A stretch of DNA of 64,000 bases from Verrucomicrobiota bacterium (GTDB taxonomy: Bacteria; Verrucomicrobiota; Verrucomicrobiia; JABWAM01), in contig JACQHZ010000291.1 of NCBI GenBank assembly GCA_016198745.1, positions 819-64,818 on the forward strand, given 5' to 3'. Position numbers and translations under genes: made by a program. Positions 1,970 to 48,084 of the stretch are shown here, piece by piece. The notes under the pieces are model-generated. The model was given only the letters and a program-made list of their open reading frames with translations, was not told the DNA's origin and ran no database searches. Each line of letters begins with the position of its first letter. Positions within the stretch are counted from its first letter, which is position 1.

Positions 1970-2030
1970 GAAATCAGTCTTTAAGGCAACACTTCGCCTG
2001 GGAAATGTACCCAAACTTCGATATATAGCG

Positions 2031-2145
2031 TCTTGACAAATCGCTGAATCTCTGATACGTATCAGATGAAATTCAGGAAAATATATTCATGAATTTTCGA
2101 CAATTTTCAATCTTGACACGCGACTGATTCTTTGATACGTAGCAG
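2031..2145 (+). promoter_or_regulatory. Tandem promoter/operator elements (two 35-bp direct repeats 80 bp apart)
   Basis: Repeat 1 at 2031-2065 is TCTTGACAAATCGCTGAATCTCTGATACGTATCAG. Repeat 2 at 2111-2145 is TCTTGACACGCGACTGATTCTTTGATACGTAGCAG. Identity is 27/35. Each has TTGACA, a 17-nt spacer and TACGTA. Repeat 1 contains a perfect 14-bp palindrome CTGATACGTATCAG; repeat 2 has an imperfect copy. The region is AT-rich and lies 20-130 bp upstream of the 2164 gene. Confidence 0.45.
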
Positions 2146-2163
2146 TTTTTAAACTCAAGCCTC

Positions 2164-8173: not shown

Positions 8174-8272
8174 TGCTCTTATCTGCGAGAACTAATGGAG
8201 TGCCGCTCAAATGCCTTTCCGATGTAGCGGGTTTTACCCCCGCCCGTGGGGTGTTTTGAAGGATATTCAAAA

Positions 8273-29325: not shown

Positions 29326-29329
29326 TGTT

Positions 29330-32023
29330 TCACCGTATATGTTTGGCGCGCGCGGCGATTTCAGCTTCCGCCAGCGCGCGATTATAGATTTCAGCCTGGC
29401 CGAATGACCCGGCAAAATAATCGCCGATTTCCTCCACGGCGCCTTCGGGATACAACGTGTTGCCGTTGCGTCCGAAATGGATATCGCCGGCGTGCGCCGG
29501 CAACTCGGCAGCAGCGCCGGCAGCCGCCTTTTTCCCGTCCACGTAAAGGATCAACCGATCCGCCGCTACGGTGGCGCCCGCTTGGTTCAGCACAAGCGCC
29601 GCGTGATGCCATTTGTTCGGCTCGATTTGATCGTACGTAAGCCATGTCCCCGGCCAGACCGCCTTTGCCCACATGCCTCCTCGCAGGGCGCCTTTGTGGA
29701 TAAAGAGATTGAGGCCGTTCCCAGATCCGCCTTCCTCATACAACATCTGGCGTTTGGTCACATCGGCCGCCCTGAACCATAGAAGAACGGTGCGATTGGC
29801 GTAGGGACCGCCCGAATTGATCGTCGGGCAATTCAACACGGAGACATAACTCTCCTTTCCGTCAAGTTCCAGTGCTGCGCCTCGCTGCGGATCATCCACC
29901 CAGTTGCTTCCCGCGACGAAGCCGAGATTGTTGTTGCCCGACGAGTCGTAAAGGAAACGATAACAGGGTTTGTACCAGCGCCCCGCGCCCCAGATCCACT
30001 GCAGCAAGCCCTGTGAGGGCGGGCGTTTTATGATGTAGCGCAGCACCAGGTCCTTCTCTGTCTGCAGACCGACGAATATCGGGACCGCGTGAGCAGCCTC
30101 GGCCTTCGCATCACCCGAGGCCCTAAGCTCGACAAGGTACTGGCCCGTCGAACTGAACGCGTGCGTCACTTTCTCGCCTTCGCCGTTCTTGCCGTCGCCG
30201 AAGTTCCACGTCAGTTTCGTCAGTTTTCCATTCGGCGCAAAAGGATCGAGCGCGGTGAATTCGACGGGCTTGCCTGACTCGACGAACTGCGACGCGACAC
30301 CAATCGCCACACTTGGCGGACCGCCGCGCCAGACCACGGTCATTTTTTTCGATTGTTCCGATACATGGAAAAATGCGCCTGCTTGCGGCACATCGACCGT
30401 GATTGGCCCGAATTCGGGCACGATGATCTCGACATTGAGGCGGGGGCGGCGCGGCGCGTGCGCATAGACGAGCCACTCGCGGGTCGGCGGTTTGCCTTTC
30501 GCCAGCGCAAGAGCGTACACGGGAATCTCGGTTTCGAGCGTCCACGGCCATTTTGCATCGAGACTCGTGTCGAGCAAAAACCAACGGTCCTCCTTCTTAT
30601 ACTCATCGGGAATGTCGGTCTGGTAGGGATGCTGATGGGCGCGATTGGGCACAAGTTCGCCTTTCCGCCAAAACTCGCGCAACACGGCGTTCGTATGGAC
30701 GCGGTCCACCGCCTCCACGATTGACATGAAATACGGCCCCGCGTACTCGACTGTCTCCAACCAACCGCGAAACTCGCGCACGACGCGCGGCCGCAACAAC
30801 CACATCCCGAACTGCACAAAACCGCCGTAACGCTCTGGCGTGAACGACTGTCCGAGGCGCGCATAGAATTTCCGTTTCGCGTTGGGTTGATCGGTCGCAT
30901 CGCCGTCCCATGTGGACATCTCGAACCAGAACCGCGGATTGAGCTTGTGCGCTTCTTGCAGCATAAAAATCCAGTTCATGGACTCGATCTGCGGACTCCA
31001 CACCGTGAAATCGGTGATCGGCATCCAGTTGTGGAGATAGTAGGAGGGCGAACCGCCGCCCCACGCCAGCGGCCCGGAATCAATCCGTCCGGGGAAATAC
31101 CCGGAGTACAGCTTCCAGTATTCAGGCGGTTCCATCGGCCGTCCCATGTGCGGAGGGCCGAGCACTTCATAACCAACGAACATGGCGTTCTTCTTCCACG
31201 CGGAATTGACCAATCCCTCCCGCATCGCCGCCTGCAACGCGCGGTAGCGTTCGATCCATCCTTCGGACACGACTCTGCGCTTGAAATCATCGTCGCGCCC
31301 CTTGCCATACCGTTCCAGGTATCCCTTGGAAGTCTCGACTTCATTCCATTGCAACTTCGAGTGTTCGTTGTTAGAAATGAAAATCACCAGCGGCGGATCG
31401 GGATACCATTCCTGGAGTTTCTTCATGAAGATGCCAGCCGTCCATTTGCCGCCCACTTCTCTCCAAGGTTCCACGGGGCCGAAGGGCGAGACCTTGGGTT
31501 GAATCGTGCCATCGAGTCCCGCCTCGTTGGGATTCTTTTCGGGTGGCAGATCGAGGTACGCCTTATCGGTGGTCAACAACGATTCCCACTGCGTGCCGAG
31601 AAACGTGAGAGGCAGTCTGAGTTGCGCCGCTTTTTGGATGCGCAACTCGTATTCCTTCATCTTGGCCTCGATCCACTTTTCACGCTCGGGGGCGCCCGGC
31701 TTCCATGTTTCCTGGAGCCACCGGTCCGTCGGCGGATGCGAAAACCAGGGCAGGACATGGCGCCCCTGATCGAGCAACTGAAACTGGTATTCTGGAGTGA
31801 ACCCATCGGCTCCGCCTTCGCCGACACCCCAATGCGCCGCCAATGGAAGTGGTCGTCCCGCTTCGCTGTGGTTCGGGCGGAGCGCCTCGACGCGGACCGC
31901 TTCGGGCACGGGCAGCGGTTTGTCCTCTGCCCTCGAATGTCCTGACGGCAAAAAGAGGGTCATCGCGTGGATGATGAAGATGGCGGTTGAGAGAATAGTC
32001 GTTGCGCCTCGCACGAGTCTCAT
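29330..32023 (-). CDS. Secreted multidomain protein: N-terminal glycoside-hydrolase-like region plus PKD domain plus C-terminal LamG domain
   Basis: Signal peptide present. The PKD signature is LTWNFGDGKNGEGEKVTHAFSSTGQYLVELRASGD. The C-terminal LamG pattern is RLILYVDGKKAA. 897 aa. Confidence 0.6.
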   Translation of the reverse strand: MRLVRGATTILSTAIFIIHAMTLFLPSGHSRAEDKPLPVPEAVRVEALRPNHSEAGRPLPLAAHWGVGEGGADGFTPEYQFQLLDQGRHVLPWFSHPPTDRWLQETWKPGAPEREKWIEAKMKEYELRIQKAAQLRLPLTFLGTQWESLLTTDKAYLDLPPEKNPNEAGLDGTIQPKVSPFGPVEPWREVGGKWTAGIFMKKLQEWYPDPPLVIFISNNEHSKLQWNEVETSKGYLERYGKGRDDDFKRRVVSEGWIERYRALQAAMREGLVNSAWKKNAMFVGYEVLGPPHMGRPMEPPEYWKLYSGYFPGRIDSGPLAWGGGSPSYYLHNWMPITDFTVWSPQIESMNWIFMLQEAHKLNPRFWFEMSTWDGDATDQPNAKRKFYARLGQSFTPERYGGFVQFGMWLLRPRVVREFRGWLETVEYAGPYFMSIVEAVDRVHTNAVLREFWRKGELVPNRAHQHPYQTDIPDEYKKEDRWFLLDTSLDAKWPWTLETEIPVYALALAKGKPPTREWLVYAHAPRRPRLNVEIIVPEFGPITVDVPQAGAFFHVSEQSKKMTVVWRGGPPSVAIGVASQFVESGKPVEFTALDPFAPNGKLTKLTWNFGDGKNGEGEKVTHAFSSTGQYLVELRASGDAKAEAAHAVPIFVGLQTEKDLVLRYIIKRPPSQGLLQWIWGAGRWYKPCYRFLYDSSGNNNLGFVAGSNWVDDPQRGAALELDGKESYVSVLNCPTINSGGPYANRTVLLWFRAADVTKRQMLYEEGGSGNGLNLFIHKGALRGGMWAKAVWPGTWLTYDQIEPNKWHHAALVLNQAGATVAADRLILYVDGKKAAAGAAAELPAHAGDIHFGRNGNTLYPEGAVEEIGDYFAGSFGQAEIYNRALAEAEIAARAKHIR

Positions 32024-32035
32024 TCGTTTTTCCTT

Positions 32036-34944
32036 TCAGTCGCTCTCGACGACGCAGGCGCCATTCTGCGGAGGGAGCAGTTTCCCATCTTGGATCCGAG
32101 GCGCCCGCAACAGCATGGCCTTGGTCTTGCCCGATGCGAATTTCATCGTCACCGCCACATCCGCATTCTTCACGGCATAACTGAGTCCGCTGAGCGCCGG
32201 CGCCTGGTCGAAGGCCTCGAAAAACTCCACATTCACCGTTTGCTTGACCTGACGTTTCCGCATGAGACTGAATGGGATCGGCGTGCCCGCCCACGTGGCA
32301 TAGGCAGTGCCGATCATCACTTCCTTCGGCTCGCCACCGGCAACGGTTCGTTGCGCCTTGAAGGACGCAAGCGGCCACTGGAAGGTGAACGCCCCGTCCG
32401 TAACCGTGCCGCTCAAGTCGTGCGGCACATCGTAGCCCGGACCCTTGGCTCCTTTCCAGTCCACCAACTTCATGTTGGCAAGACTCGTCTCCACCTTGCC
32501 AGGCGGATAGAACGGCCAGTCCACGTTGTGGGGGGCATCGGATTTGATTACATCCACCAGCAGGACGCCCTCTGGTCGCGCCACAAAATAGCGCACGATT
32601 TCCACCCCGGGATAGAGTGGCCGCTGCGGATCAGCCGCGACGATCCCCGCCGAGAACCGATTCCCTCCATCGACCAGGCAGGAGAGTTGGCGACTCATGG
32701 ATGAATCGGCCTCATCCACCACGATGCCGCTGGCGGCAAGCGAGGCGCTGGTGAACGAAGCCTGCGGATGCGAGTAGGAGATTCGGCCGGCTCTGGAATC
32801 CGCCCGCTGACCGCGGAGATAGAGCTTGTGGCTGAACAAATCATGCGCATTCCGCTCCCAGGTTTGACCCCAGTTCACATCGATGCCGTTGAAAGTCTTC
32901 GGTTCGCCAAAACGAACGAAGGTATATCCCGTCCCCTCCTGAATGGAGGAGGCCTCCTTCTCACGCGCTTTTGCCACCGCCAAATCCGTTTTCGCGCGTG
33001 GCGAACAGAAGAACCAGCGCTCGTTGCTGTGATAATTCGCCTCGGATTGGCTGAAGATCGCTGTCGGACGGACGCGTCCAGCCTCGTCCGGATAGGGCGT
33101 CTGGTATCGGGCGAAGAGGACATGGCGCAGGCCGGCCAACTTCAACAGCTTCTCGAATTTCCCGCGGCGATACACATCCGCGCCCGCGTAATGCGCGGCC
33201 TCGGCGATTTCATCGAGACAGTCGGCGTGTCCCCGCTGATAGCCTTCCGAGCCTTCGATCGTCCACCCGTCGGCGTCAAACCCATATTCGACTAACTCGT
33301 GGAATCCAAAGTCCCAATTCAAGGCGCGACCCGCCATCACCCAATGCCCGCACGCCAGGGCAATGGCCAATTGGTTGGACCGATATTCCGCCGTCTGGTT
33401 CGAATACTGGCCGTTGTGCAGGCTCAGGCGCTTCATCAGCGGCAGCAAGAAATTCGTTTCAATCTCCTGTTGTTCGGTTTCGGTGAGGCAATGACCCGCG
33501 AGCAGAAAATCATACGCCCAGGGAAAACCGCTGCACAAATACGACTCGCCGAGGACGCACCATCCGAGCAGGTTGTTGTAGCCCGTGGCTTGTGCGTTCA
33601 CGAGTTTCATGCGCGGCGCGATCCGGGCGTAGCCAAGCAAAATCTCCTTCGCCCGGTCGGCGTACTTCTTCTCGCCCGTGAGCGCGAAGGCCAGGGCGCA
33701 TTCGTAAGACATGTTGGCGTTGAGGCGATGGAACTCCGTCACCACTTTCTCGCGCAAATTGCGATTGCCGCGAATCCACTCCTTGCAAGTTGGACAATAG
33801 AGTTGAGTGAGCATTTCCTCGGTCAGTGGCGCTGTGGCGAACCCGGTGCTGCACTTGGGACAAACAAAACCTTGATCGTAGCCTCCGGATGTCTCGGGAA
33901 GGACCACGCGCGGCTTCAGGAAATTCTCCGCGTTTTCCACGAGCGAGGCGCGGGCCGCGACGAAGTCCGGCTCTTGCGCGCACCATTCGCGCAACGCGGT
34001 GAGCCGCGCCGCGTCGCAGCGGACGCGCGGGCGGTCGGCCCCGGCGTAGCGGGGCGGAACCGCGCCGAAAACGGGCAGCTCCTGCCAGCCGCGCAACACC
34101 GTGGTATCGGTCTCAGCGAGGCCCTTCACTCGAAGAATCACCGGCGCTTCTTCCGTGTAAAGCGGTTCGAGTTTTGACGCGACTTCAGCGGGAATCGACA
34201 GAATCGCGACAACGACTTTCTCCGCTCCCGCTTTCACCATGAACGGTTCCTCTTCGGAGACGAGAGTGAAATGCTTCAGGCGTTGACGATCAAATACCAG
34301 GGCGCACTCACGCTCAACGTTGTCCCGGTTGTGAATCTTCAAGTCATAGCGATACCGATATGCGTCTCCATCCTTTTCGAAGCCCTTGACCGTCTCGTCA
34401 TAGTCGAGCGTGACCGTATACCGAACGGCGCGCAGGTTCTTGACCCGCCATTCGTAGGTTGCATTCGGGCCGGTCTTCCAACCTGCAAATGAGAGCCGCA
34501 ACAGCGTGCGCGGGTCTTTGCCGTTGTCGGGACTATCGTCATCGAGCCGCAACTCGAACCGCGCCGTGCGCCAGACCTGTTTGTAGCGGGACGAAAACTT
34601 GAAATACCAGTTGCGCGCGGTGGCGAAACCGGGGACGTTTTCCAAGGTCATCCAGGCCTGACTCGGCTCTCCATCCATCCAGTATTCAAAACAGATCGCA
34701 TCGCAACCGGCCAACTGATCCTTGAGCGGCGTGAGATCCTTCACCATCGCGGTGCTGTCACGCGAAACCGAACGCCACCGGAGACAGGCGCCTCCTTTCG
34801 GATCCTCCACTGCGCTCACCTCCTTCGCGCCTTCAATCTGCCAATTCGCGAGGTTCTTAAAGTCATCCAACCGGAGCGCGTTGTCATTGCCACCCGCTGA
34901 AACGGATTTGGCGCTCGCCACGACGAGCAAGATCGCAAGGATGG
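32036..34944 (-). CDS. Secreted heparinase II/III-like / alginate-lyase-like alpha/alpha-toroid protein
   Basis: Start at MEMSILAILLVVASAKSVSA (signal peptide); the upstream part of the table ORF is junk. The central region (NGQYSNQTAEYRSNQLAIALACGHWVMAGRALNWDFGFHELVEYGFDADGWTIEGSEGYQRGHADCLDEI) resembles lyase toroid domains. Confidence 0.45.
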
Positions 34945-34956
34945 ACATCTCCATTT

Positions 34957-37900
34957 TCACGGTGTATCTCCATGTTTCGTGTTGGTTGAACCGACGGACG
35001 CCGTACCGTGCGCTTCTTTGCCGGTGATCCCCTCTTTGACCGACACGCGATACTTTCCGGGCGGGTCCGTCAGTTTGCCCAACGAAATTCTTGCGGCAAA
35101 ACAACCCCGGGCATCCGTCGCCGCCACAAAAGAATGGCTGGTCGCTTGCCCGTTGGGATATTCCACGGTCACTTCGAGAGGCCAAATCGCGGGAATACTC
35201 TCTTTCTTGGATCCGCAAACCGCGCCGGCCAACTCGATCTCGCGCTCCTTGACATTCACCCGTAGATCGATGCTCTCCACAGCCTGGGGAGGCAACATGA
35301 CCATTTGCCAATCGGCAGGCGCAATGGCGCCATTCCACTCGATTCGTTCACTCTTGCGGCGCACGGCAATCCGTTCGTGTTTCATCACATCGTAGGCCGC
35401 GTCACCCGGATGAACGAAACTGACCCCGATTTTCTGCGGTTCCCACAGGTTCAGGTTCACCAGAAACACATACCGCGCCTGGCCGCCGTAAAGCTGATGC
35501 GGGCTGATGAAATCGCTGCCGCTGACAATCAAGTCCGCCGGCTTTAGAACGGGTGTTACCGTCTCTTTCAATTTCATGACTTGTTCGCCGTGGGTATTGA
35601 TGACGCGATGGATGGGATCGTTGCCCGTCGCGCTCAGTTCGTGGTTCACGACCTCAATATCCATCGCGCTTGGAGGAAGCAGGTCCGACCGTTTTGGATC
35701 GCTGAAGAACAGGCGCTTCCCCGGTGTCTTCGCGAACTCGACGATCTTCTGCCAAACGCTTTTCGCGGAGTAACGATGATGAAAGAGAACCAATGCCTGA
35801 TATTCTTGCAGCCGTCCTTCGAGAACGTCCTGGTCCAGAACCAAATCCACCGGCGCATTGGCGCTGCGAAGGGCGGCGTAGGTGTAATCCAAGAATCCGG
35901 GCCAGCGATGTCCCTCGTGCACCCATCCCGCAAGGTTCGATTCGCTAAGCAGCACCGCCACGCGGCGATTCGGACGAAATTCGAGCCGGGCGAGCATCGG
36001 TCCGTAGCGGTGACACCAGTCCGCCCAGCGGATGAACTCGGCCTTGAGATCGTCGCGGCTCAGGATTCCTTGTTCCTTTTTCGCGCCGCTCCCATTCCAA
36101 TCGCCAAGCGCCCATTGGATCATCGAGACGCCTTTCGCGATGGCCATCTGGGTGTTTAATCGGAAATCGCCGACGCACCAGCTCAGATCAGCATCCTTGC
36201 TCTTCTGATCCATGTCGCCCGACCACCAGCCGGGCAGCCCCGCGAGCGGTTTGAAAGGACGCTGCTTTTGACGATAGCGGTGACGATCGTAAAGGAAATC
36301 GAGCCGGCCGTAGCTGACGGTATAACCCGGCGTGGGCTCCCAGGTCGAGGTATAGGCGTAATCCATCACGCAATCGAGTTCGCCGCCTTCGCTGCCGCTG
36401 ATGTTGAGCGTGGTCACATCGGGCCGGACCGTTTTGACCCACTCGTGACATTGACGGTAAGCGCGTTCAAACGCCGGTGCGCTGCAATCGCCCGGCAATC
36501 CGATGATCCGGGCCCATTGAATGTACGGTTCCTGATCGGGAAAAATGGTGGCGGGTTCGGACACCGGAGGAAAGGCCGGCCCCTTTAAGCCGGTCTGTTG
36601 CATGAAATGTGCCACCGCATGCTGGTTGTAATCGCCGATCTGCAATCTTTTATTCACCTCTTCCAGCCGCAAGTCGTATTCATCCTGAAACGAAACAAAC
36701 CGCAGGCCCGGATAATCTTTTAGCCGTTTCATCACCGACAGAACGAACTCCTTGATGAATTCCTGCGCGACCGGGCTTGAAGGCGAAGCGATGCTGCTGG
36801 GGAGACTGCCGGTGCTGTTGTTAAAATCCTTGCCGTCCGCCCAAGCCAGAATCTGGCAGATTTCCGCTTGCCCCTTCGGACTGAGCCGGCCGTCTTTGTC
36901 AAAATAATCCCGCGTTTTTTCCGGCGAAATTCGCGGATAAAACGAATGATGAAACACATTAAAATTCACCATGGCAGAAATACCGTAAGTGTATGCCTCA
37001 TTCATCCGCGCCTCGAGACCGGATTCCGGGAAAAGCTCATACGTCACCCACGTGTCGATATGCCATTTCCGCAGCATTTCATACTGCCACGATTCAGTGA
37101 TGCCGCCCCAGAGACCAAGTGAAAATGCGGGCGGACTTTCGGGCTGTACGCCCAAGACGATCTCCGGACTCGAAGCCACCTGCTTGGCGCCATCCCATAA
37201 CTCGGCGCTAACACCGTAACGCCCCGGTCTCAGGTCCGTGGTGTTGAGCGCGAAGCGGTTTTCATGGGAAGGCAGAGCGCCGAGGACCCATTTGTTGGTC
37301 GAACCCTCCGCATGCGCAACAATCCGCGCCTCAGTTCCGCGGCTGTAGGAAAGCACGCTGAGCGCGACTTGCTCGCCGCGTCGGTAGCCGCGCCTCGGCG
37401 CGTGAAGCAGAATCCCGCCGCCAAGCGATTGGATCAGCCCCTTGTAGGCAGGGTCGTTCCCGTCACGCCAGAGTCGTTTCACCTCCTCGTCCGAAAGCGG
37501 CGACCGCAGAATCGCGAACTCGTCCAGGATGGCGTTTGCGAAGCCGCTGTCAGGTTCAGATGTGCTACCGTGCCTGAACCCCAGGTAAAATCGGGGATAC
37601 ACGCCATACTGACACTTGTTCAACGGAAGCGCGCCATCCCGCGAGCCGACCAGTTCGCCGTCAAAATAAAACCGTCGTTTGTCCGCGTCCCACACGCCCA
37701 CGACGAAATGCCATCGTTCCGACAGATCATTCATGAAAGGATGAAGGTCGCCTTTCACGAAGTCCTGATGCGTGCCCGCGTAGAAGAGCATCGCGTCGCC
37801 CGATGTTTGGTACATCTCGAACGTGGCGTTGCCGCTGCAATACAACGTTCCGATTTGAGCGCCCTTGGGCTTGAACCAAAGCATCACGCTGCCGCGATCA

Positions 37901-38250
37901 AGAGGAAAATTCCTCATGTCAATCCAGTAGCTCGGTCGAGCGCCGCCGGGCGCTTGTTCCGGCGCGCCGACCCACAGGCCTTGACCAATCCTCCCCGGCT
38001 GGAAGACCGACACGCCGGTTGTTGCCGCGGCGTTCGTGGCCGCCGATTCCGCGCGACCAAGCGAAGTGTCCCAGGAAGACCCGATCACGGGCGCCATCGT
38101 TCCGTCCATCGGCGCGTAAAAAAAGACCTTGGTTATGGCGTTGCTGCTGCTGTTTTGACTCTCGGCGAGCAGGTTCATTGCCCCATCGCTCAAGACCAAC
38201 AGAGAAAGAAAAATGCTTTGGACGATGGGTTGTGGAAAGATTCGTTTCAT
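34957..38250 (-). CDS. Secreted LamG-domain plus GH42-like TIM-barrel glycoside hydrolase candidate
   Basis: 1097 aa. The N-terminal LamG pattern is RFYFDGELVG. The remainder resembles GH42/GH35-type barrels. Family assignment is weak. Confidence 0.45.
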   Translation of the reverse strand: MKRIFPQPIVQSIFLSLLVLSDGAMNLLAESQNSSSNAITKVFFYAPMDGTMAPVIGSSWDTSLGRAESAATNAAATTGVSVFQPGRIGQGLWVGAPEQAPGGARPSYWIDMRNFPLDRGSVMLWFKPKGAQIGTLYCSGNATFEMYQTSGDAMLFYAGTHQDFVKGDLHPFMNDLSERWHFVVGVWDADKRRFYFDGELVGSRDGALPLNKCQYGVYPRFYLGFRHGSTSEPDSGFANAILDEFAILRSPLSDEEVKRLWRDGNDPAYKGLIQSLGGGILLHAPRRGYRRGEQVALSVLSYSRGTEARIVAHAEGSTNKWVLGALPSHENRFALNTTDLRPGRYGVSAELWDGAKQVASSPEIVLGVQPESPPAFSLGLWGGITESWQYEMLRKWHIDTWVTYELFPESGLEARMNEAYTYGISAMVNFNVFHHSFYPRISPEKTRDYFDKDGRLSPKGQAEICQILAWADGKDFNNSTGSLPSSIASPSSPVAQEFIKEFVLSVMKRLKDYPGLRFVSFQDEYDLRLEEVNKRLQIGDYNQHAVAHFMQQTGLKGPAFPPVSEPATIFPDQEPYIQWARIIGLPGDCSAPAFERAYRQCHEWVKTVRPDVTTLNISGSEGGELDCVMDYAYTSTWEPTPGYTVSYGRLDFLYDRHRYRQKQRPFKPLAGLPGWWSGDMDQKSKDADLSWCVGDFRLNTQMAIAKGVSMIQWALGDWNGSGAKKEQGILSRDDLKAEFIRWADWCHRYGPMLARLEFRPNRRVAVLLSESNLAGWVHEGHRWPGFLDYTYAALRSANAPVDLVLDQDVLEGRLQEYQALVLFHHRYSAKSVWQKIVEFAKTPGKRLFFSDPKRSDLLPPSAMDIEVVNHELSATGNDPIHRVINTHGEQVMKLKETVTPVLKPADLIVSGSDFISPHQLYGGQARYVFLVNLNLWEPQKIGVSFVHPGDAAYDVMKHERIAVRRKSERIEWNGAIAPADWQMVMLPPQAVESIDLRVNVKEREIELAGAVCGSKKESIPAIWPLEVTVEYPNGQATSHSFVAATDARGCFAARISLGKLTDPPGKYRVSVKEGITGKEAHGTASVGSTNTKHGDTP

Positions 38251-38277: not shown

Positions 38278-39681
38278 CTAGAATGGGTAGTCTCCCCCGT
38301 TGGGATGAACGCTACGACCTTCCACGAAACTCCACGAATACCAGGCGACATGCCAATCACAGAAGAGGACGTTGATCCCATTCGAATGCCTTGGAAACGC
38401 GTAGGAGGTGGGTATGGTGAAAGTGCTTGATTGATAAAATCCGCCGTCGAAGCAGAAACAAATCCTCGATGGAATCGGGACGGCCAACGCGGATGACTCA
38501 AGCACTTGATACTTGATCGGATTGGTGAACAAGTAGCTTCTGCCGTAGGTCGTGTCGATGCCCGGTTCGCCGGGCATCGGGGTTGACGGACAATCCACGC
38601 TGCATGGATAAGCAACGCGCGTGCCCAACGGTCCGCCATACTGCGGATATTTCTTGCCGAGGTACCCCATCCAATCCAGCGTGGCAACTCCGCGCAGCCA
38701 TTCCGGCCAGGGCGCGAAATAGACGGAAGCCGGCGGAAGATACTCCTCATTGTCATTCATATACAGGACCAGCGCCGTTCCGATTTGCTTCAGGTTGTTC
38801 ATGCACGCAATCGATTTCGCCTGGTTTCTCGCCGATTTGAGCGATGGCATCAGCAGGGCAGCAAGAATGCTGATAATGGCGACCACCACCAGAAGTTCTA
38901 TTAAGGTGAAGCTCCGCTTGGACGACGCCCCGGTTCTTCGTTTCGGGATCATCTCGCCAACCGATCCCATGTGCCGCATCATCCATTGTCGGTCTTTTTC
39001 TTGGGCGGCGGCCGCAAGCAGATTCGAAAAGATTGGCGCCGTATGCCGGTAAACCAGTTCGACAGCGCCTTCCGCATCACGAGTTCGGAGAGCTTGAATG
39101 ATGCGACGGTGAGTGCGAAGGACGCCTTCGGTGTCCGCGCGATGGTTTTCGACGCTGACGCCGCTCATCCAACTGAACACCTGCACGTGCGCCCCCTGGA
39201 CGAGCGCCTCCACGCGCTGGCTGTTGGCGAGGCCGACCAACAGACGGTGAAACTCCAGGTCGTAATGATCCGCCGCGCGCCAGTCGCCCTTTCGCGACGC
39301 CGACTCCATCGCGTCGCAGGCGTGTTCCATTTCAGCCAGCTTGAACTCCGAGAACCCTCTTCGGCACGCGATCCGCACCGCAAGACACTCCAGCGCTGAG
39401 CGAATCTCGAAGGTCTCCTCAATTTCCTCCACCGTGCAATGCCGCACAAAAAACCCCGCATTTCGCACCCGCTCCACCAGTCCTTCGCCGACCAGTCGCA
39501 TCAGCGCCTCACGAATGTGAAATCGTCCTGCGCCGAGATGCTCGGCGAGCGGCGTCTCGGTCAGGTGCGTCTCCGGTGGAAATTGCCCTTCGAGAATTGC
39601 ATAACGAATTTCTGAGTACGCCCGATCCACCGGCGAACCGGCGGTCAAGGGCGGATTCAGCCTGGATTTCATTCTGATCAT
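38278..39681 (-). CDS. Fusion protein: GntR/FadR-family regulator (HTH plus FCD domain) fused in-frame to a pseudopilin-like TM helix and DUF1559 (H-X9-DG) domain
   Basis: - Residues 1-230: GntR HTH ([52 protein letters not shown]) plus an FCD-like helical domain.
- Basic linker: [11 protein letters not shown].
- Then [25 protein letters not shown] (N_methyl motif) and a DUF1559 domain ending [13 protein letters not shown].
- Single uninterrupted 467-codon ORF, first gene of the 11-gene operon. Confidence 0.75.
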
Positions 39682-40457: not shown

Positions 40458-41657
40458 TTAAAACTCCAAGCACTCGTAGAATTCGGAGAAGGTGGGACAC
40501 GGCTTTCTTATGAACAAGCATTTCGTAAATGCAAGGCCGGTGAACAGGTTGCCCTGATCCGTTTTCCCGTCGGGATATACATCGCCGGTCACGAGGTCGA
40601 GCGTTTCATAAAACTTCTCGTGATCGTATCCGTACCAGGTGAGCATCGCGTTGGTGGTGATCGGAACGCGCACGCCTTCCTGCCGCAACCATTCGCGTTG
40701 CAGTCCCCAGCATTCTCGGATTTGGTGGTCCATGAAAAGGCCATAAAGTTGGTGAAGGCAGGGGTTCGACCCCGCTTCGGGCAGGGGCGCCTCCTCGAAT
40801 GCTCGCGAAGTGCGGCCCAAAAAAAACTGGCCGACCTTGAAGTTGAACGTTTCGATCTCTTCGAACAGCCGCTTCAACCACTGCTGAAAACTGCGGTGAC
40901 ACAGCGGACAATAACAAAACGGGCGCCCGATTTCGTTGTCAATTTGCCAGCCGATGACCGATGGGCACTGCGCATAGCGCCGGGCCATGGCTCGAACGAT
41001 GCGTTCGCAATTCTCGCGATAGCGCGGCGACGTCGGGCAGGTATGGCGTCGCACGCCGGTTCCGTAACTGCGCCCGTCCATTTTCACGGGCACAATCTCG
41101 GGGTGCTTCAGACAAAGCCAGTCGGGCGGCGATCCCGTCGGCGTGGCAAGAATCACGTTGATTCCGCGATCGGCAAGGATGCGAATGAAGTGATCCAGCT
41201 TTGGATCGAGACGACAGCCGAAACTGGCCGTCGCCGTGCCCGGCCCGACGCCGAGTCCGAGCAACGGACGAATCGGGTTGTGGAGTTTCAACGGCGCGAG
41301 CAGTCCGCACAGTTCGGTAGCGAGTTGCTCGGGCGAGCAGGCTTCGACTTGCGTCCGCCGTTCCTTCTGTCCGCCCTTCGGGATGCCTTCGCCCGCGTCG
41401 GGGTCGGCCTGGCGATTGAGATGAAACACCGGGTGCGGCCGCGGCCGTCCCGCTTGCGCCGCCAGGTCGGCCGCGAACCCGTCGCACGCGGGGTTCGCCC
41501 GCAACGCGGCCGCCAGTTCGGTCAGAGCATCGTCAACGTGTTGGTTCATACGAATTACTAAGCAGTCGGTATTTACGCCATCTCCAGCGATTCTCATGGT
41601 TTTTCCAAAATGCGAGTGCTTGTGGGGGATCCATATCTCCTTGATAAGTTGCGACAT
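40458..41657 (-). pseudogene. GH42-like beta-galactosidase fragment (TIM-barrel portion only; trimerisation and C-terminal domains missing)
   Basis: VILATPTGSPPDWLCLKHPEIVPV...RYAQCPSVIGWQIDNEIG...CYCPLC is the GH42 order, including the catalytic acid NE and the Cys cluster. GH42 enzymes are about 650-700 aa. The N-terminal 100 aa look degenerate. It abuts the GNAT fragment. Confidence 0.5.
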
Positions 41658-44600
41658 CGGATCTCGAGTGCCTGAACCACGGAGGATTGAACCACCGCGT
41701 CGTCTTTGATGCGAATCCAGGCCGCCCGACCATTGAATTCCACCTTATCGAACTGGTGCAGGCCATCCTTCTCACTATACAAAACCATGTCCGTGAACGT
41801 TTCCCTTTGGAGACGAAGACCCACGCGCACCCCCTCCGAGTCAGACTCCGTGATTTCGATTGGCTCCACGGTTGTGATAGGGGGCTGATCGCCGCGAATT
41901 TCCATGACCGAAACAAAGACTGTGTTTCGTGCTTGCCGTCGAGCAACGAACATGGAGCGAAGCGGCTGGTGCTTCATGCAACCAGGGCTCTGACAGGCAA
42001 AAATCGTGGTTTCCGGAATGGGCATGAGTCTGAATACCAGATCGGTAAATCCCTTGGGCGTGTTGAAGGGCCATCTGACCGAATACTCAGAGTCACAGCG
42101 ACGCTTGGCAATGACATCCACATCCTGATACCCGTTGCCGATCCCCAGCTTGGTTTCTGGAGAAGCGGGGAAATTTGACGGGTCTTTCCAGTCGCTATCG
42201 ACGTGGAGGACGTAGTCGTATTGGTGTTGGTTGGCGCTGCGACAAATAAAGACATCGACCAGACAATCCGGGCCGAGGATGAGCGCCCGCCGCAATCCCA
42301 CGTCGGGATAACATGCGTCCGCCGATGCGCCCACGGCTTGAAGGAATGAATCACCGTGAAAGAAATCCAGGCGGCCGGTGTTGGGCTTCCGACTGTCGTC
42401 CCCAATGCGGTGGCTGGTTTCGTCCACAACGACCGTGTTGTAGGATATGCTGGTGCGTTGATACTCCTCGTAGCCCGGCTGATGATAAGTGCTGGTCCGG
42501 TATACTGGAAAGGCTCCCCGTGCATAGAGAATGTACGCAAGTCGATCGCCGTGATTGTGCCCGCCGCCATAGGGACCGTAGGTGAATGCCAATACCGGCG
42601 CATCGGGGTTGGATTCATCCTGACGAAGAACGGCGAAGCCCGTGGAGGGAAAGAGCGTGCTGCCATTCTCGGCCACACCGGTGTTGGCAAAACGTCCGGT
42701 GCCAATCTTGAACTCTGCGTCTTTGGGAAAGGTCTCGTCCCACCATATCAGCCGGGACCAACCATTCAGAGCCGTCTGATTGAACCAGGCATACCGAGGC
42801 TCCTGGTATCGGAGCCATGCCAGGTAATAGTGTTCACCCCCATACCACTTGTTTGCCACCGCGTCGCCGAAGGTCGGCGCCGTATGATCCGGGAACATAA
42901 AGTACAAGAGGGCATCGAAAGCCATTTTAAGGGTCTTGGGACCGTTGTCGCCGTCCACCGGATAGTGCTCGCCATAGTCCTCCAGACAGGTATCCGGCAC
43001 CGGGGTATGCCAAAGATCCACATTATTGTTGTAGGCAGCTTCGGCCAAGTCGTACAAGGGAGGCATGGCGGTGGTCACGTGGTAGCTGATGCTCTTCTCC
43101 CACCACAACCCGTCGTCACTGACCTGGCTGGCGACCTGCTTGAGAAACCCATAGGGACCAAACACCGCCCAGCGGATATACTTTTCTTCGCAGATACAAA
43201 AGCCAGTTAGTCCCACCGCGCCAATCCGCATGTTCTGAAAGTTGGTGGCGGTGTGACATAGGTCTTTTTCGCCCCTGCGATTAATCATGAGGTCGTCCGC
43301 CATGGGGCGAAAGAGATCATCCTCGATGTGTTGTTTGTCTTTTTCGGAGAGAACTGGGCATGGATAAAGCAGGTCGTAGGATCGAACTGCTGAATTCAGC
43401 CAACATGCATCCGTGAATTGCCATGCGGTAACGCGCCCTTCGTCATGCTGGAAAGGAAGGTTGCGGTAACGGTCCGCCCAATCGAGAAGCGTCTCGCGGA
43501 CCTTTTTTGCGAATTCCTCTTGTCCCGTCAGAACATAGGCGGCGGCTTGCTGGAAAGTCTGATCGTAGGGGCCTTTCTGGCTGGCGCGGCGGAGAACGTC
43601 CTGGACGCAATCTTTAGCCCAAGGGAACTTTTTGACCCTCGCTTTTGCCCTTTCGATTTGCGCTTGAGTGTAGAGCAGACGCGGATGGCGTCGAATGCCG
43701 GTTGTATTCGGGTCCACCTTCTTCACTTCCGGAGGGGACCACGATTCCCCGGGACCGACACCCAGGATTCCGTTCAGGCCTTGGCCTGCGATTTCCAGCG
43801 GTTGCGGTTCCGCAGGTTTCATCCACACAACCGCCCCGCGCTGTCTCTTGACGTTCTCGGCCACCACGCCGTATTCCTCATCCCGTTTCCCTTCGGGATC
43901 GGTGAACAGGAACACCCCTTCGCGGGATGCCTTCTTGTCAATCACCCTCTCCATCTGTCCTGCCGCCCGGCGGTTTAGGACAAGGTATTCTTTCACCGGC
44001 TCGCCTGAAAGCGCATCCCAGCGGATCGTGACACCCCCCTTGCGATTGGGGCAGACGAACACATTCCGAACAGTTCCAGGTGTTGCCACCGCCTGGACCA
44101 GTGCCCGGACAACACCGGAACCTGTTCCCACCTCCCCAGCGAGGTTCAGCGAAAAGACTTGATAATATACCTCGCTGTTGGGCGGTACGGCGGAATCCTC
44201 AAAGACCTCCGATACCGTCTCACCAAGAATCTTCTTATTACTCATATCAGGTGAGGTCGAACGGAAAATACGATACCGAAACACCCCGCGAAGTTCGTCC
44301 GGCATCTTCCAACTCAACCTTATGGCGCCGCGGGGAAGAATGAACGCTGCCGCACAGGTGGGCGGGGGAGAAACTTCTCCGCTGAACGCAGTAATGCACA
44401 CATTGTCATAGGCATATTCATAACGATTGAAGTGCTGGAAACCGAGCTTCCCCTTGACCGGAACCTCCTTTGTGACCAAAAGCTCTTCCACCGAAACGTC
44501 CGGCCGTCGCCGGTATACAGCCGCTTCGCCGTTTGTGACCACCAGACGCATGACGTACGGTTGATTGACCTGAAACGACGTTGGCGTCAGGCGAAGTTCA

Positions 44601-44959
44601 TTCTCAGGCACGCTTCCTCCCTCGCCCGCTCCCGCCACGATCACGGCTCTCTCATCTCCCTTGTCCGCCAAACGCACCATGGTCCATTGCATGACAACAT
44701 TTCGAAAAGATTGTTTGGTCAAGAGGAGCGCATGGGCATAGGAATCCTGCCACTCGCTGTTGCTGGCGATAAGCCTTCCCCCCTCAACCCGGAATCCTTT
44801 GTCGCGACGGCTCCAAAACTCCGCCCAGACAGGCGGGGTGTCGAAGTTGTCCTTGTACTGAACGAATTCTTCGCCCGCGGCAAGGGGGTTGCTGAAAACC
44901 AACAGCAAGATAACCCCGGTAAAATACGCAACACTCATTCTACTAAAATAAAACAGCAA
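41594..44959 (-). CDS. Secreted heparinase II/III-family protein (PL12/PL21-like) with N-terminal beta-sandwich/FN3-like domains
   Basis: Signal peptide present. The C-terminal half carries an alginate-lyase-like toroid and the Hepar_II_III-like motif PYGGGHNHGDRLAYILYARG. 1121 aa. Confidence 0.6.
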   Translation of the reverse strand: MLFYFSRMSVAYFTGVILLLVFSNPLAAGEEFVQYKDNFDTPPVWAEFWSRRDKGFRVEGGRLIASNSEWQDSYAHALLLTKQSFRNVVMQWTMVRLADKGDERAVIVAGAGEGGSVPENELRLTPTSFQVNQPYVMRLVVTNGEAAVYRRRPDVSVEELLVTKEVPVKGKLGFQHFNRYEYAYDNVCITAFSGEVSPPPTCAAAFILPRGAIRLSWKMPDELRGVFRYRIFRSTSPDMSNKKILGETVSEVFEDSAVPPNSEVYYQVFSLNLAGEVGTGSGVVRALVQAVATPGTVRNVFVCPNRKGGVTIRWDALSGEPVKEYLVLNRRAAGQMERVIDKKASREGVFLFTDPEGKRDEEYGVVAENVKRQRGAVVWMKPAEPQPLEIAGQGLNGILGVGPGESWSPPEVKKVDPNTTGIRRHPRLLYTQAQIERAKARVKKFPWAKDCVQDVLRRASQKGPYDQTFQQAAAYVLTGQEEFAKKVRETLLDWADRYRNLPFQHDEGRVTAWQFTDACWLNSAVRSYDLLYPCPVLSEKDKQHIEDDLFRPMADDLMINRRGEKDLCHTATNFQNMRIGAVGLTGFCICEEKYIRWAVFGPYGFLKQVASQVSDDGLWWEKSISYHVTTAMPPLYDLAEAAYNNNVDLWHTPVPDTCLEDYGEHYPVDGDNGPKTLKMAFDALLYFMFPDHTAPTFGDAVANKWYGGEHYYLAWLRYQEPRYAWFNQTALNGWSRLIWWDETFPKDAEFKIGTGRFANTGVAENGSTLFPSTGFAVLRQDESNPDAPVLAFTYGPYGGGHNHGDRLAYILYARGAFPVYRTSTYHQPGYEEYQRTSISYNTVVVDETSHRIGDDSRKPNTGRLDFFHGDSFLQAVGASADACYPDVGLRRALILGPDCLVDVFICRSANQHQYDYVLHVDSDWKDPSNFPASPETKLGIGNGYQDVDVIAKRRCDSEYSVRWPFNTPKGFTDLVFRLMPIPETTIFACQSPGCMKHQPLRSMFVARRQARNTVFVSVMEIRGDQPPITTVEPIEITESDSEGVRVGLRLQRETFTDMVLYSEKDGLHQFDKVEFNGRAAWIRIKDDAVVQSSVVQALEIRCRNLSRRYGSPTSTRILEKP

Positions 44960-44980: not shown

Positions 44981-45688
44981 CTATGGAATAGTTTTCCTTT
45001 TCTCAGTGTTTCCAGGCATCTTCTCGTCTATTTGGAGCGTTACATCATCAATATACACAACCAATTTTCCATCCCCCTTCCGCGCGCCCGTGATGCTCAC
45101 CATCCAGCCAACCACCGTTGCGGTGCCGGGCTTGTAGTCAGTGTATTTTGCGTTCCTCGCTATTTCCTCGTTCACATTGATTTCGTAATGATGCCATCCG
45201 CTGTTCTCATCAATAGAGCGCTTCGGCGTAAGCGGCGCCGAACCGCTTGGCTGTCCAGTTGTTTCCTTTATTCCATTCACCAGCACCGCCAGCTTGACCG
45301 CCGACGAGTCAGAACCCTCAACATATAAGTACCCTGACAGCACGGCGTTGCCTTCTTTAATGGCCACAGTTGGAGAAAAGGCGTGTTTCAAATACACATA
45401 TACAATACTGTCATCCAAACGCGTAATATCACACTTGAGCGAACATTTTCCAGAATGGGCCTTTTCACTGGAAATCCCCTTGTAGTTGATCATCACCTTT
45501 TCATTTCCAAAAGCCTGCTTCTCAATGGGTCCCGTGATGGAAGAAGTAAAACCGGGATTACCGCCTTGTATTGCTTTCACATCGTCATCGTCTTCATTCT
45601 CATAACTATTTGTATGGGCCGGTTCCGACCCCACACTGACGCCAGTGATCATGGTCATCAGTAAGGATGAGTATAGGATGCGTTTCAT
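44981..45688 (-). CDS. Small secreted hypothetical protein (235 aa), compositionally atypical (lower GC)
   Basis: Signal peptide MKRILYSSLLMTMITGVSVGS. It has an acidic stretch NEDDDDV and is rich in beta-strand-forming residues. Its GC content is visibly lower than that of its neighbours. Confidence 0.6.
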   Translation of the reverse strand: MKRILYSSLLMTMITGVSVGSEPAHTNSYENEDDDDVKAIQGGNPGFTSSITGPIEKQAFGNEKVMINYKGISSEKAHSGKCSLKCDITRLDDSIVYVYLKHAFSPTVAIKEGNAVLSGYLYVEGSDSSAVKLAVLVNGIKETTGQPSGSAPLTPKRSIDENSGWHHYEINVNEEIARNAKYTDYKPGTATVVGWMVSITGARKGDGKLVVYIDDVTLQIDEKMPGNTEKRKTIP

Positions 45689-45705: not shown

Positions 45706-47424
45706 TCAGAAATCAAGCAAGTAAGGTGAATTTCCTCCTCGACTGATATCGATAAGCCATGCTTGCAGCTCTCCGGACTTCTTAGCCGCAACGTGTCCAT
45801 CTACAAACAGAACGTTGTCGATTCCGCCGTGCCGGCCTGGAAAATAAGTATTGTAAGTGGGAAGATTTTTCAGTGTAAAGTAGCCGTAGTCCGGAGTTGT
45901 CAGATACGCCTGGTCCGCGGCCAGGACGCTTCGGCTCGAATCTGCTATTTGGGATAGCTTGGCGGGAGGGTATTGACCGGGGTTGGTCCAGGGAGGCGTC
46001 TGGCCGTTGGCCGGCCAAGCGCATGGTCCATAGAAAAGGACTCCGTAGGTGTAATACCTCAGGGACGTGACCTGTTTCGTAACAGGACAGTATAGAATGC
46101 TGGTTGGCCTGGTATAATCTGCTCCGAAAGGTTTCAGATATTCTCCAAAAAGTTTCGCGGGCACCTCGGTTCCGTTCGAGATTGGAGGAAAGGATTCGTT
46201 GTTGTCCTGAGCATACATGTTAACAACCATCCCAAGTTGCTTCAAATTGTTCATGCAGGCAATGCCCCTGGCCTGATCGCGCGCCTTTTTTAGCGCCGGA
46301 GATAATAAGGCCGCCAGAACGGCAATGATTGCGATAACGACGAGTAATTCGATAAGTGTGAATGCGGTTGCGCGGCGACCGTTTCTATTGCCGACGGCAG
46401 CGGGTTCCAACTGCGGGGTGGATTGATCGGCGGGACAGGATTGTTCAGCCCGACAAGCCGGGGTTGATTCGCGAACGATGAGGGATACCGGCAAGATGAT
46501 GTTGTCAACGTTTCCGACGGACATCAATTGCATGAGACTCGATGCGGCGCGTCGACCGATTTCCTGTTTGGGCGGGGCGATCGTCGTGAGGCGGGGTCTG
46601 ATGACGGTGGCAATGGGCATGTCGTTGAATCCGGTGATTGCCAGATCCCGAAACGGGTCAAAGCCGAGGTCGATGGTGGCGGCAATGATCCGGGCCGCCA
46701 GATCGTCACTAAAGGCGAACACGGCCAAAGGGCGTTCTCGTTGCAAGAGCACCCTGAACGTATCAACGTTCCAGTCCATCGCCCAATGTCCCTGAAACGG
46801 AAGGCCATGATCGCGCAACGCCTTCCGGTAGCCGAATGATCGAGCTTGTCCGAACGGGCCCCGCCCGCCGCCAATGTAATAGATTCGACGATAACCGCAT
46901 TGAATCAGATGCTCAACAGCCAGAAAGGCGCCGTGTACATTGTCAAACCCCACATAGGGGCCGGGAATCCCCCGGATGGGTGCGGTCACAAACACCGTAG
47001 GAATCCTTTTCTGGGATAGTTCCTGATAAAGGCTTGGCGGAAACGCATGGTGGGGCACAATCAATCCATCCACTTGTCTCTCCAACAGGACCCGCACGGC
47101 TTTCGCAAGGATGGGCGTCGATGTGGGAACCAGACGAATCAGGAGTCCATGGTCATGGTCATCCAGCACCTGCTCGATGCCCTGCAGGATGTCGGAGAAG
47201 AACGAGGCGGTTAAGGTGGGCATGATGACGCCGACCAAAAACGATTTCCCCATTCGTAGGTTGCGGCCCAAAGGATTCGGTCGATACCCCAATTCGGCAA
47301 CCTTTTTCAGGATGCGTCGTTCGGTTCGCTTGCTGATCTGCCCACGCCGGTACAATGCACGGTCAATGGTTGCCCGGGAAACCCCTAAAGTGCGAGCCAA
47401 CTGGGAGGAGCCGATATTCATCAT
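45706..47424 (-). CDS. Fusion protein: LacI-family regulator (HTH plus PBP-like domain) fused in-frame to a pseudopilin-like TM helix and DUF1559 domain
   Basis: - N-terminus: [50 protein letters not shown], a LacI HTH.
- About 280 aa of PBP type-1 pattern.
- Linker NRNGRRATA.
- Then [24 protein letters not shown] and a DUF1559 domain ending [14 protein letters not shown].
- One continuous ORF of about 572 codons, first gene of its operon. Confidence 0.75.
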
Positions 47425-48084
47425 GCGGGCACGTGCCCGTAATTTCACAGAATGACACATTGGCCAGTATTGTCAAGAGCATAGCTGAAAAAAAATTCCT
47501 CCTTACGTCCGGATTTGGGGGTGGCAAGACTTTTTTCTGGGTCGGTTTGGTCGCGCTTTTGAAGGAGCGTTGAGATTCGGTCTTGGAATTGGACATCGGG
47601 GATGAGCTTTCGGATTGGGGGTGGAACCTTTTCGATGTTGGCGTTGCCTGTCTGCCGTGCTCGGCACAGGCAGGCGACTCGATGAGTTCGCGGCGGACCA
47701 TGGCCACGTCGATTTGCGCGAAACGCGCTTCCAAGGTGGGTTGCCCGTTCAAGAGCACTTCCAGATGCTGGGGATTTTCCAGATTCTTTGCCAGGGGCGT
47801 ATCGGCGACCTGCCTGTGCGGCACGCAGACAGGTCATGGCCTGAAGCGTTCGGCTAATGCAGTGGTTGCCTGCCTGTGCGTGCCGCACGCAGACAGGCCG
47901 CTGCGGCGACGCGCGTCCGGCTCATCCAGATTCACCATCCCCGCCACGCGGATTGAGGGATCGAGCACGCGGAAGCAATTCTTGATCATCCAACTGACGC
48001 GCAACCCGTGCCCGATCACACCCAGCCGAAGCAGTTTGGATTTCATGATGCGAACTCTCCTCATTTCTGTTTCCGAAAAAACAC

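Follow-up and report, generated by a model that had tools for sequence, protein, structure and literature searches.

A 64,000-nucleotide stretch of a Verrucomicrobiota contig (JACQHZ010000291.1), called the window here and used as the numbering for all coordinates, carries on its minus strand a gene that encodes an entire LacI-family repressor and, fused to it in frame, an entire type-IV-pilin-like pseudopilin of the DUF1559/H-X9-DG family. Comparison with other assemblies shows that this gene is the fused state of a recurrent cassette made up of a PBP-type sugar regulator, a pseudopilin and large exported glycan-active proteins. The cassette is spread over Verrucomicrobiota, Lentisphaerota, Armatimonadota and Omnitrophota, usually as closely spaced separate genes, with gaps that in some cases are small enough for a start-stop overlap. 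Fusions have arisen several times through joining of the two genes, and some have been kept for long. We put at about one in two the probability that the gene is such a recurrent, sometimes long-kept read-through fusion, encoding a precursor that lies N-in/C-out in the membrane and is cut by prepilin peptidase. The gene and its parts are the following:

45706..47424, minus strand: fusion gene, LacI-family repressor joined to pseudopilin in one frame; an alternative upstream ATG at 47460 would give 584 amino acids.
47275..47397, minus strand: LacI-type helix-turn-helix DNA-binding domain (Pfam PF00356, residues 22-62, 30.6 bits, cut-off 27).
About 47260-47283, minus strand: LacI hinge helix, just after the helix-turn-helix.
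46462..47235, minus strand: two-lobed PBP-type effector (sugar-binding) core (Pfam PF13377, E 4e-23; PF00532, E 4e-17; residues 76-333).
46369..46446, minus strand: disordered linker, basic towards its C-terminal end (residues 327-352, predicted local distance difference test score [pLDDT] < 50).
46342..46365, minus strand: predicted prepilin-peptidase site, Ala(-1), Phe(+1)-Thr-Leu-Ile-Glu(+5)-Leu-Leu (N_methyl and TIGR02532 matches; motif invariant across 13 fusions).
46204..46356, minus strand: pilin alpha-1 helix, whose N-terminal half is the predicted single transmembrane segment (matches the N termini of GspG, PilA and ComGC).
45709..46203, minus strand: pseudopilin head, predicted periplasmic, with the family-conserved Cys402 and Cys458-Pro and with H-X9-DG.

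These parts lie within an open reading frame (ORF) of 584 codons (45706..47460, minus strand) that runs as a single uninterrupted frame. The likely translation start is ATG 47424, giving 572 amino acids; we prefer it because it yields a typical LacI N terminus and an exact match to NCBI entry MBI4026335.1, a protein from a Verrucomicrobia metagenome-assembled genome (MAG) that is identical to the 572-residue form and is annotated just as “substrate-binding domain-containing protein.” The initial annotation of this DNA had placed a LacI helix-turn-helix and PBP domain, a pilin helix and DUF1559 in one gene, a composition that the single frame and the order of the Pfam domains bear out; its coordinates are numerically correct, with the gene read from the minus strand. 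On the regulator side, residues 19-336 align end to end with the NCBIfam models for CytR, GntR, RbsR and CcpA, every score falling below the equivalog cut-off. On the pilin side, Pfam N_methyl matches residues 362-386 (27.3 bits against a cut-off of 21.2), and TIGR02532 also scores above its own cut-off. The Pfam model DUF1559/SBP_bac_10 (PF07596) matches residues 392-428 (28.3 bits against a cut-off of 23.3) through positions 2-37 of its 268 only, a stretch that is the continuation of the pilin helix. The H-X9-DG motif is present by pattern at residues 544-555 (45796..45831), and the TIGR04294 hidden Markov model gave no match at E ≤ 0.01. When the C-terminal module was searched, the best 120 matches measured about 150-350 residues and almost all bore N_methyl/DUF1559/H-X9-DG annotations, with a top identity of 53%. 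Because each half has a significant independent domain match within a single frame, chance is no issue as the source of the two-part architecture, and each half can be assigned to a known family, LacI/GalR in one case and pilin-like DUF1559/H-X9-DG in the other.

The predicted structure agrees with this division. An AlphaFold2 model of the full-length protein (pLDDT 87.7, predicted template modeling score 0.61) contains two confident domains with the disordered linker between them. Residues 1-326 form a complete two-lobed LacI repressor, mostly with pLDDT > 90, and the helices of its helix-turn-helix region (6-13, 17-24, 32-45 and 51-58) are all above 85. The pilin alpha-1 is a continuous helix both in the full-length model (residues 357-407) and in a model of the module alone (residues 11-61), and the extended alpha-1 packs on an antiparallel beta-sheet head, as in the pilin fold. 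In the model, both halves thus look like working proteins on a flexible tether.

The junction between the halves carries the signals of a pilin precursor in an unusual setting. Phe+1 and Glu+5 are both present, as is the hydrophobic tract (about 21 residues), and a reading of the translation confirms the junction as first described, with a basic linker ahead of the pilin helix and Ala at -1. Where a pilin is expected to have a short (6-26 amino acids) hydrophilic leader ending in Gly, the fusion has 354 residues before Phe+1, the folded repressor included, and ends in Ala; the 10 or so residues just before Phe+1 are nevertheless basic and leader-like. A search with a junction profile supplied 231 free relatives; in these, position -1 is A in 42%, G in 40% and S in 8% (90% A, G or S together), and it is A, G or S in 15/15 fusions. 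We therefore rejected Ala at -1 as a special trait of the fusion: it is about as frequent as Gly in the free relatives, and both Ala at -1 and a basic stretch ahead of FTLIELL are ordinary in free members of the family. Archaeal peptidases accept Ala and Ser. Across the fusions, the linkers vary in length and are K/R-rich throughout, and the linker studied here resembles, by its sequence, the former prepilin leader of the pilin. The pilin half has also kept all residues that are near-invariant in free relatives, namely Phe1, Glu5, the Cys...Cys-Pro pair, H, N and DGH, of which H, N and DGH are nearly invariant among 81 relatives.

We then asked whether the same join is found elsewhere. The initial annotation had let its claim depend on homologous fusions in related genomes, and many were retrieved, from more than 10 other assemblies of Verrucomicrobiota, Omnitrophota and Armatimonadota. 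Fusions of like layout come from Omnitrophota (P0004, P0005, P0007, P0010), from Verrucomicrobia (P0014, P0015, P0025, P0033, P0058) and from a member of the Capsulimonadaceae, Armatimonadota (P0011, a GntR-type helix-turn-helix with a PBP core), and two further proteins of this layout were found by homologue search (P0270 and P0326). In an alignment of 13 PBP-type fusions, a small residue ends the linker and is followed by a conserved FTL(I/V)ELLVV(I/V/T)AII; one fusion to a GntR-FCD regulator and one to a uroporphyrinogen-decarboxylase-like (URO-D) enzyme, both with the same type of junction, raise the total to 15. Some of these are replicated: P0025 was recovered on two contigs from two samples, and the P0011 cluster holds a second, Logan-derived member. 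P0058 (MBI4024997.1), a fusion of a GntR-type helix-turn-helix and PBP core to a pseudopilin on a 22.6-kb contig, has an accession number 1,338 away from that of MBI4026335.1; by this accession proximity alone it probably comes from the same MAG, and that genome would then hold at least three regulator-pseudopilin fusions. Long N-terminal extensions of pilins at four further loci (L055, L059, L062 and L082) were rejected as fusions, since on reading the translations they proved to be shadow ORFs.

The recurrence of the join in more than 10 other assemblies supports the earlier view that fusions of this class are not an artefact of assembly. As to the gene in the window, the DNA of its four pilin-helix copies differs at synonymous positions and contains no long identical stretch, so an assembler would have had no long repeat to be misled by, and the join itself lies upstream of that segment; on these grounds we rejected an assembly chimera at repeated pilin-helix DNA. 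A metagenome scan returned no close relative of the LacI-pseudopilin gene. A profile of the end of the PBP core, the linker and the pilin helix, run against 5.8 billion proteins, returned free pilins only and added no fusions, because the pilin helix dominates the selection of candidates.

Separate genes are the usual form of this pairing. In the commonest arrangement, a separate regulator is followed about 0-60 nucleotides downstream by a free pseudopilin and then by exported enzymes, and fusions are the minority; since loci were ranked by similarity to the full-length query, the sample is biased and these frequencies of split and fused forms are rough. The window holds such a pair itself:

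61112..63054, minus strand: split unit, GntR-type helix-turn-helix and PBP regulator (61870..63054), then a free pseudopilin (61112..61873) whose leader ends SHA, followed by FTLIELL.

Stops in all three frames separate the two genes (about 61860-61880), and a 478-residue ORF and then an exported PcRGLX-like lyase lie 3' of the pair. Each of the closest relatives of the pilin module (43-53% identity) is a free protein, 226-272 residues long. Among six nearest relatives that were looked up, five directly follow a LacI/PBP regulator, at gaps ranging from an overlap to 43 nucleotides (L001, L002-L004, L092, L094 and L089); the sixth, L090, has other neighbors. The fragment upstream of the pilin in L089 is cut and ends in ILKPKLIERHSC, the LacI C-terminal motif. 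A large Pfam-less ORF comes after the pilin in 5/6 of the nearest relatives, with 771-939 amino acids in the four complete cases and a cut by the contig end in L089. In a scan of species genomes (one genome per species), loci that match both halves of the query are adjacent genes, none of them fused. Such pairs occur in MAGs labelled Chthonomonas, Victivallis vadensis, Armatimonadota and Abditibacteriaceae, where the regulator ends 9-210 nucleotides before FTLIELL, and in five more loci, chosen for the pilin only, a PBP-type regulator ends 9-131 nucleotides before the motif. Because 42 other upstream neighbors of free pilins belong to no dominant family, the regulator-pilin pairing is recurrent and not universal. 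Conversely, a GntR-type helix-turn-helix and PBP regulator at 8246..9394 (plus strand) is followed by a BNR-like protein and a GH20 protein and by no pseudopilin, so that not every such regulator in the window pairs with a pilin.

Several observations point to the joining of two neighboring genes as the origin of the fusions. In P0002, the nearest homologue of the regulator half at 76% identity, the frame is closed by a stop codon just where the linker would begin; the DNA homology between its locus and the window ends exactly there. Old pilin leaders, with their Met, are still visible in many linkers (MRIRA, MQRSKA, MKKTGKMVRKTFA and MKRESCGVNRPSKKA, each right before Phe+1), and the linker of the GntR-FCD fusion, the sister fusion in the window, likewise still shows the old leader. 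The partner need not be a regulator: in P0070, the same pilin module is fused to the URO-D enzyme, and the window holds the same two modules as separate genes:

1205..3033, plus strand: URO-D-like ORF (1205..1969) with a free pseudopilin (2164..3033) directly downstream, the module pair that is fused in P0070.

In P0070 at least, the fused partner is thus a type of gene found upstream of a pilin. The URO-D-like ORF of the window has 254 amino acids and is possibly truncated at its 5' end; the pseudopilin after it reads ASG and then MTLIELL, and the ORF lies upstream of a DUF4838 protein as well.

The initial annotation had suggested a phylogeny of DUF1559 domains as a means of finding a distinct clade of fused pilins, and no such clade emerged: the fused heads are polyphyletic, with a free pilin as the nearest neighbor of 12/13. 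Its view that the LacI fusion is independent of the GntR fusion held, as the two fused heads of the window are not each other's closest relatives and their DNA differs synonymously. Nor do the two halves of a fusion evolve in step. The regulators that are paired with the closest pilin relatives are at most 22% identical to the LacI half of this gene, and two orthologous fusions (P0010 and P0326, locus L086) share 87% identity in the regulator half against 33% in the pilin head; one possibility is that the head was replaced by recombination at the module boundary, another that it diverged very fast. At the same time, some fusions are old and were retained over long divergence: P0014 and P0015, likewise orthologous, have a homologous linker (a CGV stretch), while their regulator halves share 49% identity and their pilin heads 37%. 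Two other proteins of the pseudopilin family look different: P0012 is a tandem pilin-pilin read-through, its first copy apparently frameshifted near the H-X9-DG region, and in P0183 what remains of one pilin helix precedes a second pilin that is complete. The family thus includes accidental read-through products.

What, then, becomes of the product? Class III signal peptides are inserted through SRP, the signal recognition particle, and Sec with the N terminus in and the C terminus out, and their cleavage takes place at the cytoplasmic face, behind a small residue that in bacteria is normally Gly; assembly, but not cleavage, requires Glu5 (PMC4471445). In the reading that we favor, the hydrophobic pilin helix of the fusion would insert into the inner membrane N-in/C-out through SRP/Sec and, owing to this orientation, the repressor half would be cytoplasmic and the pilin head periplasmic. 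The precursor would amount to a prepilin with a 354-residue leader, cut at Ala/Phe on the cytoplasmic face. Cleavage is the most likely outcome because the features that the peptidase reads are intact and do not differ from those of free paralogues: position -1 is small, Phe+1 and Glu+5 are in place, and a basic stretch lies upstream. The LacI repressor would thereby be set free in soluble form, still carrying a tail of some 30 residues, and may control the lyase/glycosidase operon downstream, with a cytoplasmic sugar as its signal. Cleavage would also give an equimolar amount of mature pseudopilin acting like the free, locus-specific ones, likely in a type II secretion-like filament that exports the neighboring enzymes or captures their substrate. 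The fusion would then add co-production and a transient membrane localization, and not a new principle of sensing.

Four further points argue for cleavage. The constraint to A, G or S at -1, with Ala normal in the family, makes sense only if the sites are cut. The 15 fusions have all retained a small residue at this position. The head keeps the family-conserved residues, so presumably it still serves as a pilin, and for that a free N terminus is required. And with an enzyme such as URO-D as N-terminal partner, a parting of the halves after synthesis is the easiest explanation.

Other points weigh against this proposal. To our knowledge, the removal of a folded leader of about 350 residues by a prepilin peptidase is without precedent. 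Known leaders have 6-26 residues, and Gly at -1 is described as critical in bacteria (PMC4471445), where the fusion has Ala. Among the window ORFs scanned there is no gene for a prepilin peptidase or for secretion machinery, and their presence in the genome is assumed. The exact LacI-pseudopilin fusion rests on one MAG assembly, and no close relative carrying it was found. Finally, the long retention of some fusions, together with a probable three in one genome, could mean that the tether itself is useful.

This last point leads to the strongest of the alternatives, to which we give about half the weight of cleavage: the protein may stay uncleaved, as a membrane-tethered one-component regulator similar to ToxR or CadC. 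The pilin helix would then be a mere anchor and the DUF1559 head a periplasmic sensor or interaction domain, for example, for oligosaccharides or for the secretion apparatus, while the membrane-held LacI half would bind its operator and integrate the periplasmic signal with a cytoplasmic sugar signal. The layout is indeed that of membrane-bound regulators, with a cytoplasmic DNA-binding domain, one transmembrane helix and a periplasmic C-terminal domain, and a flexible linker of at least 26 residues would permit dimerization and DNA binding. The huge “leader,” with Ala instead of Gly at -1, may block processing (PMC4471445). Old fusions such as P0014 and P0015, probably several per genome, fit a lasting function of the tether, and the head of P0010 and P0326 diverges faster than their regulator, as ligand-binding or exposed domains tend to do. 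However, most genomes keep regulator and pseudopilin separate, so the regulator needs no tether; a sensor logic does not account for the similar fusion of URO-D; the fused heads are scattered among free ones, and no features specific to them were found; and the complete cleavage and assembly motif (small -1, Phe+1, Glu+5) has been kept, although a mere anchor has no need of it. This tethered form is essentially the modular sensor architecture that the initial annotation had argued for. The fusion is real, as that argument held, and recurrent, but split genes are commoner, the nearest regulator homologue is unfused, the heads are polyphyletic, URO-D serves as a partner as well, and Ala at -1 is ordinary. 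A sensor role of the pilin domain is accordingly a possibility and not the best-supported reading.

It is tempting to speculate that the cut itself is the regulated step, although we consider this doubtful. As long as the precursor has not been processed by prepilin peptidase, the repressor would sit at the membrane, inactive or kept off its operator. Such a proteolytic switch would make transcription at the glycan locus depend on how active the pseudopilus or secretion machinery is, or on how much capacity it has. All evidence for a cleavable site applies equally here, and the retention of some fusions over long divergence, probably with several in one genome, would suit such a function. Regulated proteolysis of membrane-tethered regulators is a known principle, and in Pseudomonas the membrane pilin pool feeds back on transcription (PilA-PilS). 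On the other hand, prepilin peptidases are generally held to be constitutive, and we know of no regulated step; split pairs predominate, so the coupling would be a lineage-specific add-on; and the idea is without direct evidence. It seems similarly improbable that two things hold jointly, namely that the peptidase is the switch by which a transcription factor is released, tying the expression of each glycan-degrading locus to the state of its own secretion filament, and that DUF1559 pseudopilins serve as locus-specific components of glycan utilization in bacteria of the PVC (Planctomycetes-Verrucomicrobia-Chlamydiae) type.

Least credible of all is that the in-frame join stems from an error of sequencing or assembly, or that the fusion is recent, without function and heading for loss: the exact gene is known from one assembly, its nearest regulator homologue has a stop at the linker start, and clear accidental read-throughs exist in the family (P0012 and, similarly, P0183), but neither half is damaged, each with its conserved residues complete and its fold confidently predicted, the four pilin-helix copies share no long identical stretch and lie downstream of the join, and the same join recurs in more than 10 other assemblies, some of them replicated.

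The surroundings of the gene fit the cassette described above and comprise, in the window:

44981..45688, minus strand: downstream gene 1, 235-residue exported protein of low GC content with a signal-peptide-like N terminus, after a 17-nucleotide gap.
41594..44959, minus strand: downstream gene 2, exported polysaccharide lyase, relative of heparinase II/III and alginate lyase (PF05426, PF07940, PF16889), after a 21-nucleotide gap.
40458..41657, minus strand: downstream gene 3, protein with a GH42-like beta-galactosidase domain (PF02449, E 1.5e-59), overlapping the end of the lyase ORF.
38278..39681, minus strand: sister fusion, GntR-FCD regulator and pseudopilin with Ser at -1 (Pfam), followed by a 1,097-residue exported LamG protein.
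47426..47439, no strand assigned: perfect 14-nucleotide palindrome CGGGCACGTGCCCG, candidate operator, abutting the start codon at 47424 and unique in the window at 0 mismatches.

Downstream gene 1 has a GC content of 0.44-0.49 against 0.577 for the window and gave no Pfam or NCBIfam match; the signal peptide of downstream gene 2 begins at a Met 7 codons into the ORF. The short gaps on the same strand and the signal peptides make it plausible that, as first proposed, the fusion gene heads an operon with a low-GC secreted protein and a heparinase-type lyase, and a scan for terminators and promoters stayed at background level, without a terminator-like site above it between the fusion and the downstream genes. 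The GntR fusion that the initial annotation had reported at 38278..39681 (minus strand) is also real, by its frame and Pfam matches. Signal peptides were found on the large proteins downstream of the four pilin genes whose N termini were read, and the loci of other fusions are similar in content, with DUF4838, LamG/CBM9, GH2, GH65, GH123-like and URO-D genes. As about five perfect 14-nucleotide palindromes are expected per window by chance, CGGGCACGTGCCCG is weak evidence for an operator.

The gap upstream of the fusion gene spans about 620 nucleotides and contains hairpins like repetitive extragenic palindromic (REP) elements: three GC-rich ones, of the CCTGCCTGTGCGGCACGCAGACAGG family, lie at 47640..47900. 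A short minus-strand ORF that starts near 48046 (MKSKLLRLGVIGHG, about 47830..48050) resembles the N terminus of a Gfo/Idh/MocA oxidoreductase and is interrupted by the repeats. Elsewhere in the window, an MTTB-like methyltransferase (27916..29415, minus strand) and the URO-D-like gene (1205..1969, plus strand) stand among glycan-active genes, and the loci L087 and L090 each show two URO-D genes after the pilin; the presence of MTTB-like and URO-D-like genes suggests a corrinoid-dependent demethylation step in glycan loci. Two pairs of ORFs overlap, 34957..38250 with 32036..35338 by about 380 nucleotides and 41594..44959 with 40458..41657 by 64 nucleotides, and the mechanically listed starts of the overlapping downstream genes are probably too far upstream.

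The main value of the fusion is that it offers a first functional lead for the DUF1559 family, which is hugely expanded in Planctomycetota, Verrucomicrobiota and Lentisphaerota. DUF1559/H-X9-DG proteins that are fused to, or stand right after, sugar-responsive repressors heading clusters of exported lyases and glycosidases constitute a Rosetta-stone link to glycan utilization. The fusion is also a natural test of how large a cytoplasmic cargo prepilin peptidase can remove, and, with a smaller chance, a regulated cut would be a new way to couple transcription to a secretion filament. The current label, “substrate-binding domain-containing protein,” hides both halves of such fusions.

In a search of the open-access full-text literature, neither regulator-pilin fusions nor the gene pair of regulator and pseudopilin turned up. 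With the LacI/GalR repressors (CytR, RbsR, CcpA, PurR), the protein shares the N-terminal helix-turn-helix, the hinge helix and the type I PBP fold within residues 19-336; it differs in scoring below every equivalog cut-off and in carrying a membrane/periplasmic extension of 230 residues. We know of no characterized LacI-family member with such an extension. Compared with the pseudopilins and pilins GspG/PulG/EpsG and PilA, its “leader” is folded and has 354 residues where theirs are hydrophilic and have 6-26, the -1 residue is Ala and not Gly, the head is larger and carries H-X9-DG, and no secretion operon lies nearby. It shares the Cys pair and, by pattern, H-X9-DG with the DUF1559 (PF07596)/H-X9-DG (TIGR04294) paralogues, its closest relatives at 43-53% identity, but in Planctomycetota, Verrucomicrobiota and Lentisphaerota these occur as free proteins with 200-350 residues, and this one is fused to a regulator. 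DUF1559 proteins are the largest paralogue group in Planctopirus, with 68 copies and no assigned function (PMC10632474). A cultured verrucomicrobium (Verruconatronum) has 67 PulG-like paralogues, one of them in a gene cluster for alginate degradation; genes of this cluster are overexpressed on alginate, and a pseudopilin gene is among the overexpressed genes (PMC13274419).

Among membrane-bound regulators, ToxR, CadC and TcpP share the predicted layout of a cytoplasmic DNA-binding domain, one transmembrane helix and a periplasmic C-terminal domain. However, theirs is a winged helix of the OmpR type, coupled to dedicated sensors and free of a prepilin signal, whereas the fusion binds DNA, by prediction, through a LacI-type domain. 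The Sulfolobus “bindosome” offers a common theme in the pilin-type signal on sugar-acquisition proteins (PMC4471445); there, the signal precedes an extracellular solute-binding protein, while here the binding-protein fold would be cytoplasmic and upstream of the signal. Archaeal leaders often end in a residue other than Gly (PMC4471445), which A, G or S at -1 in the present family fits. Lastly, the “modular” type IV pilins, such as PilB of Streptococcus sanguinis, likewise combine a pilin with another functional module in one polypeptide, but their module is C-terminal and displayed on the filament, whereas the module described here is N-terminal, predicted to be cytoplasmic and incompatible with a filament unless it is removed.

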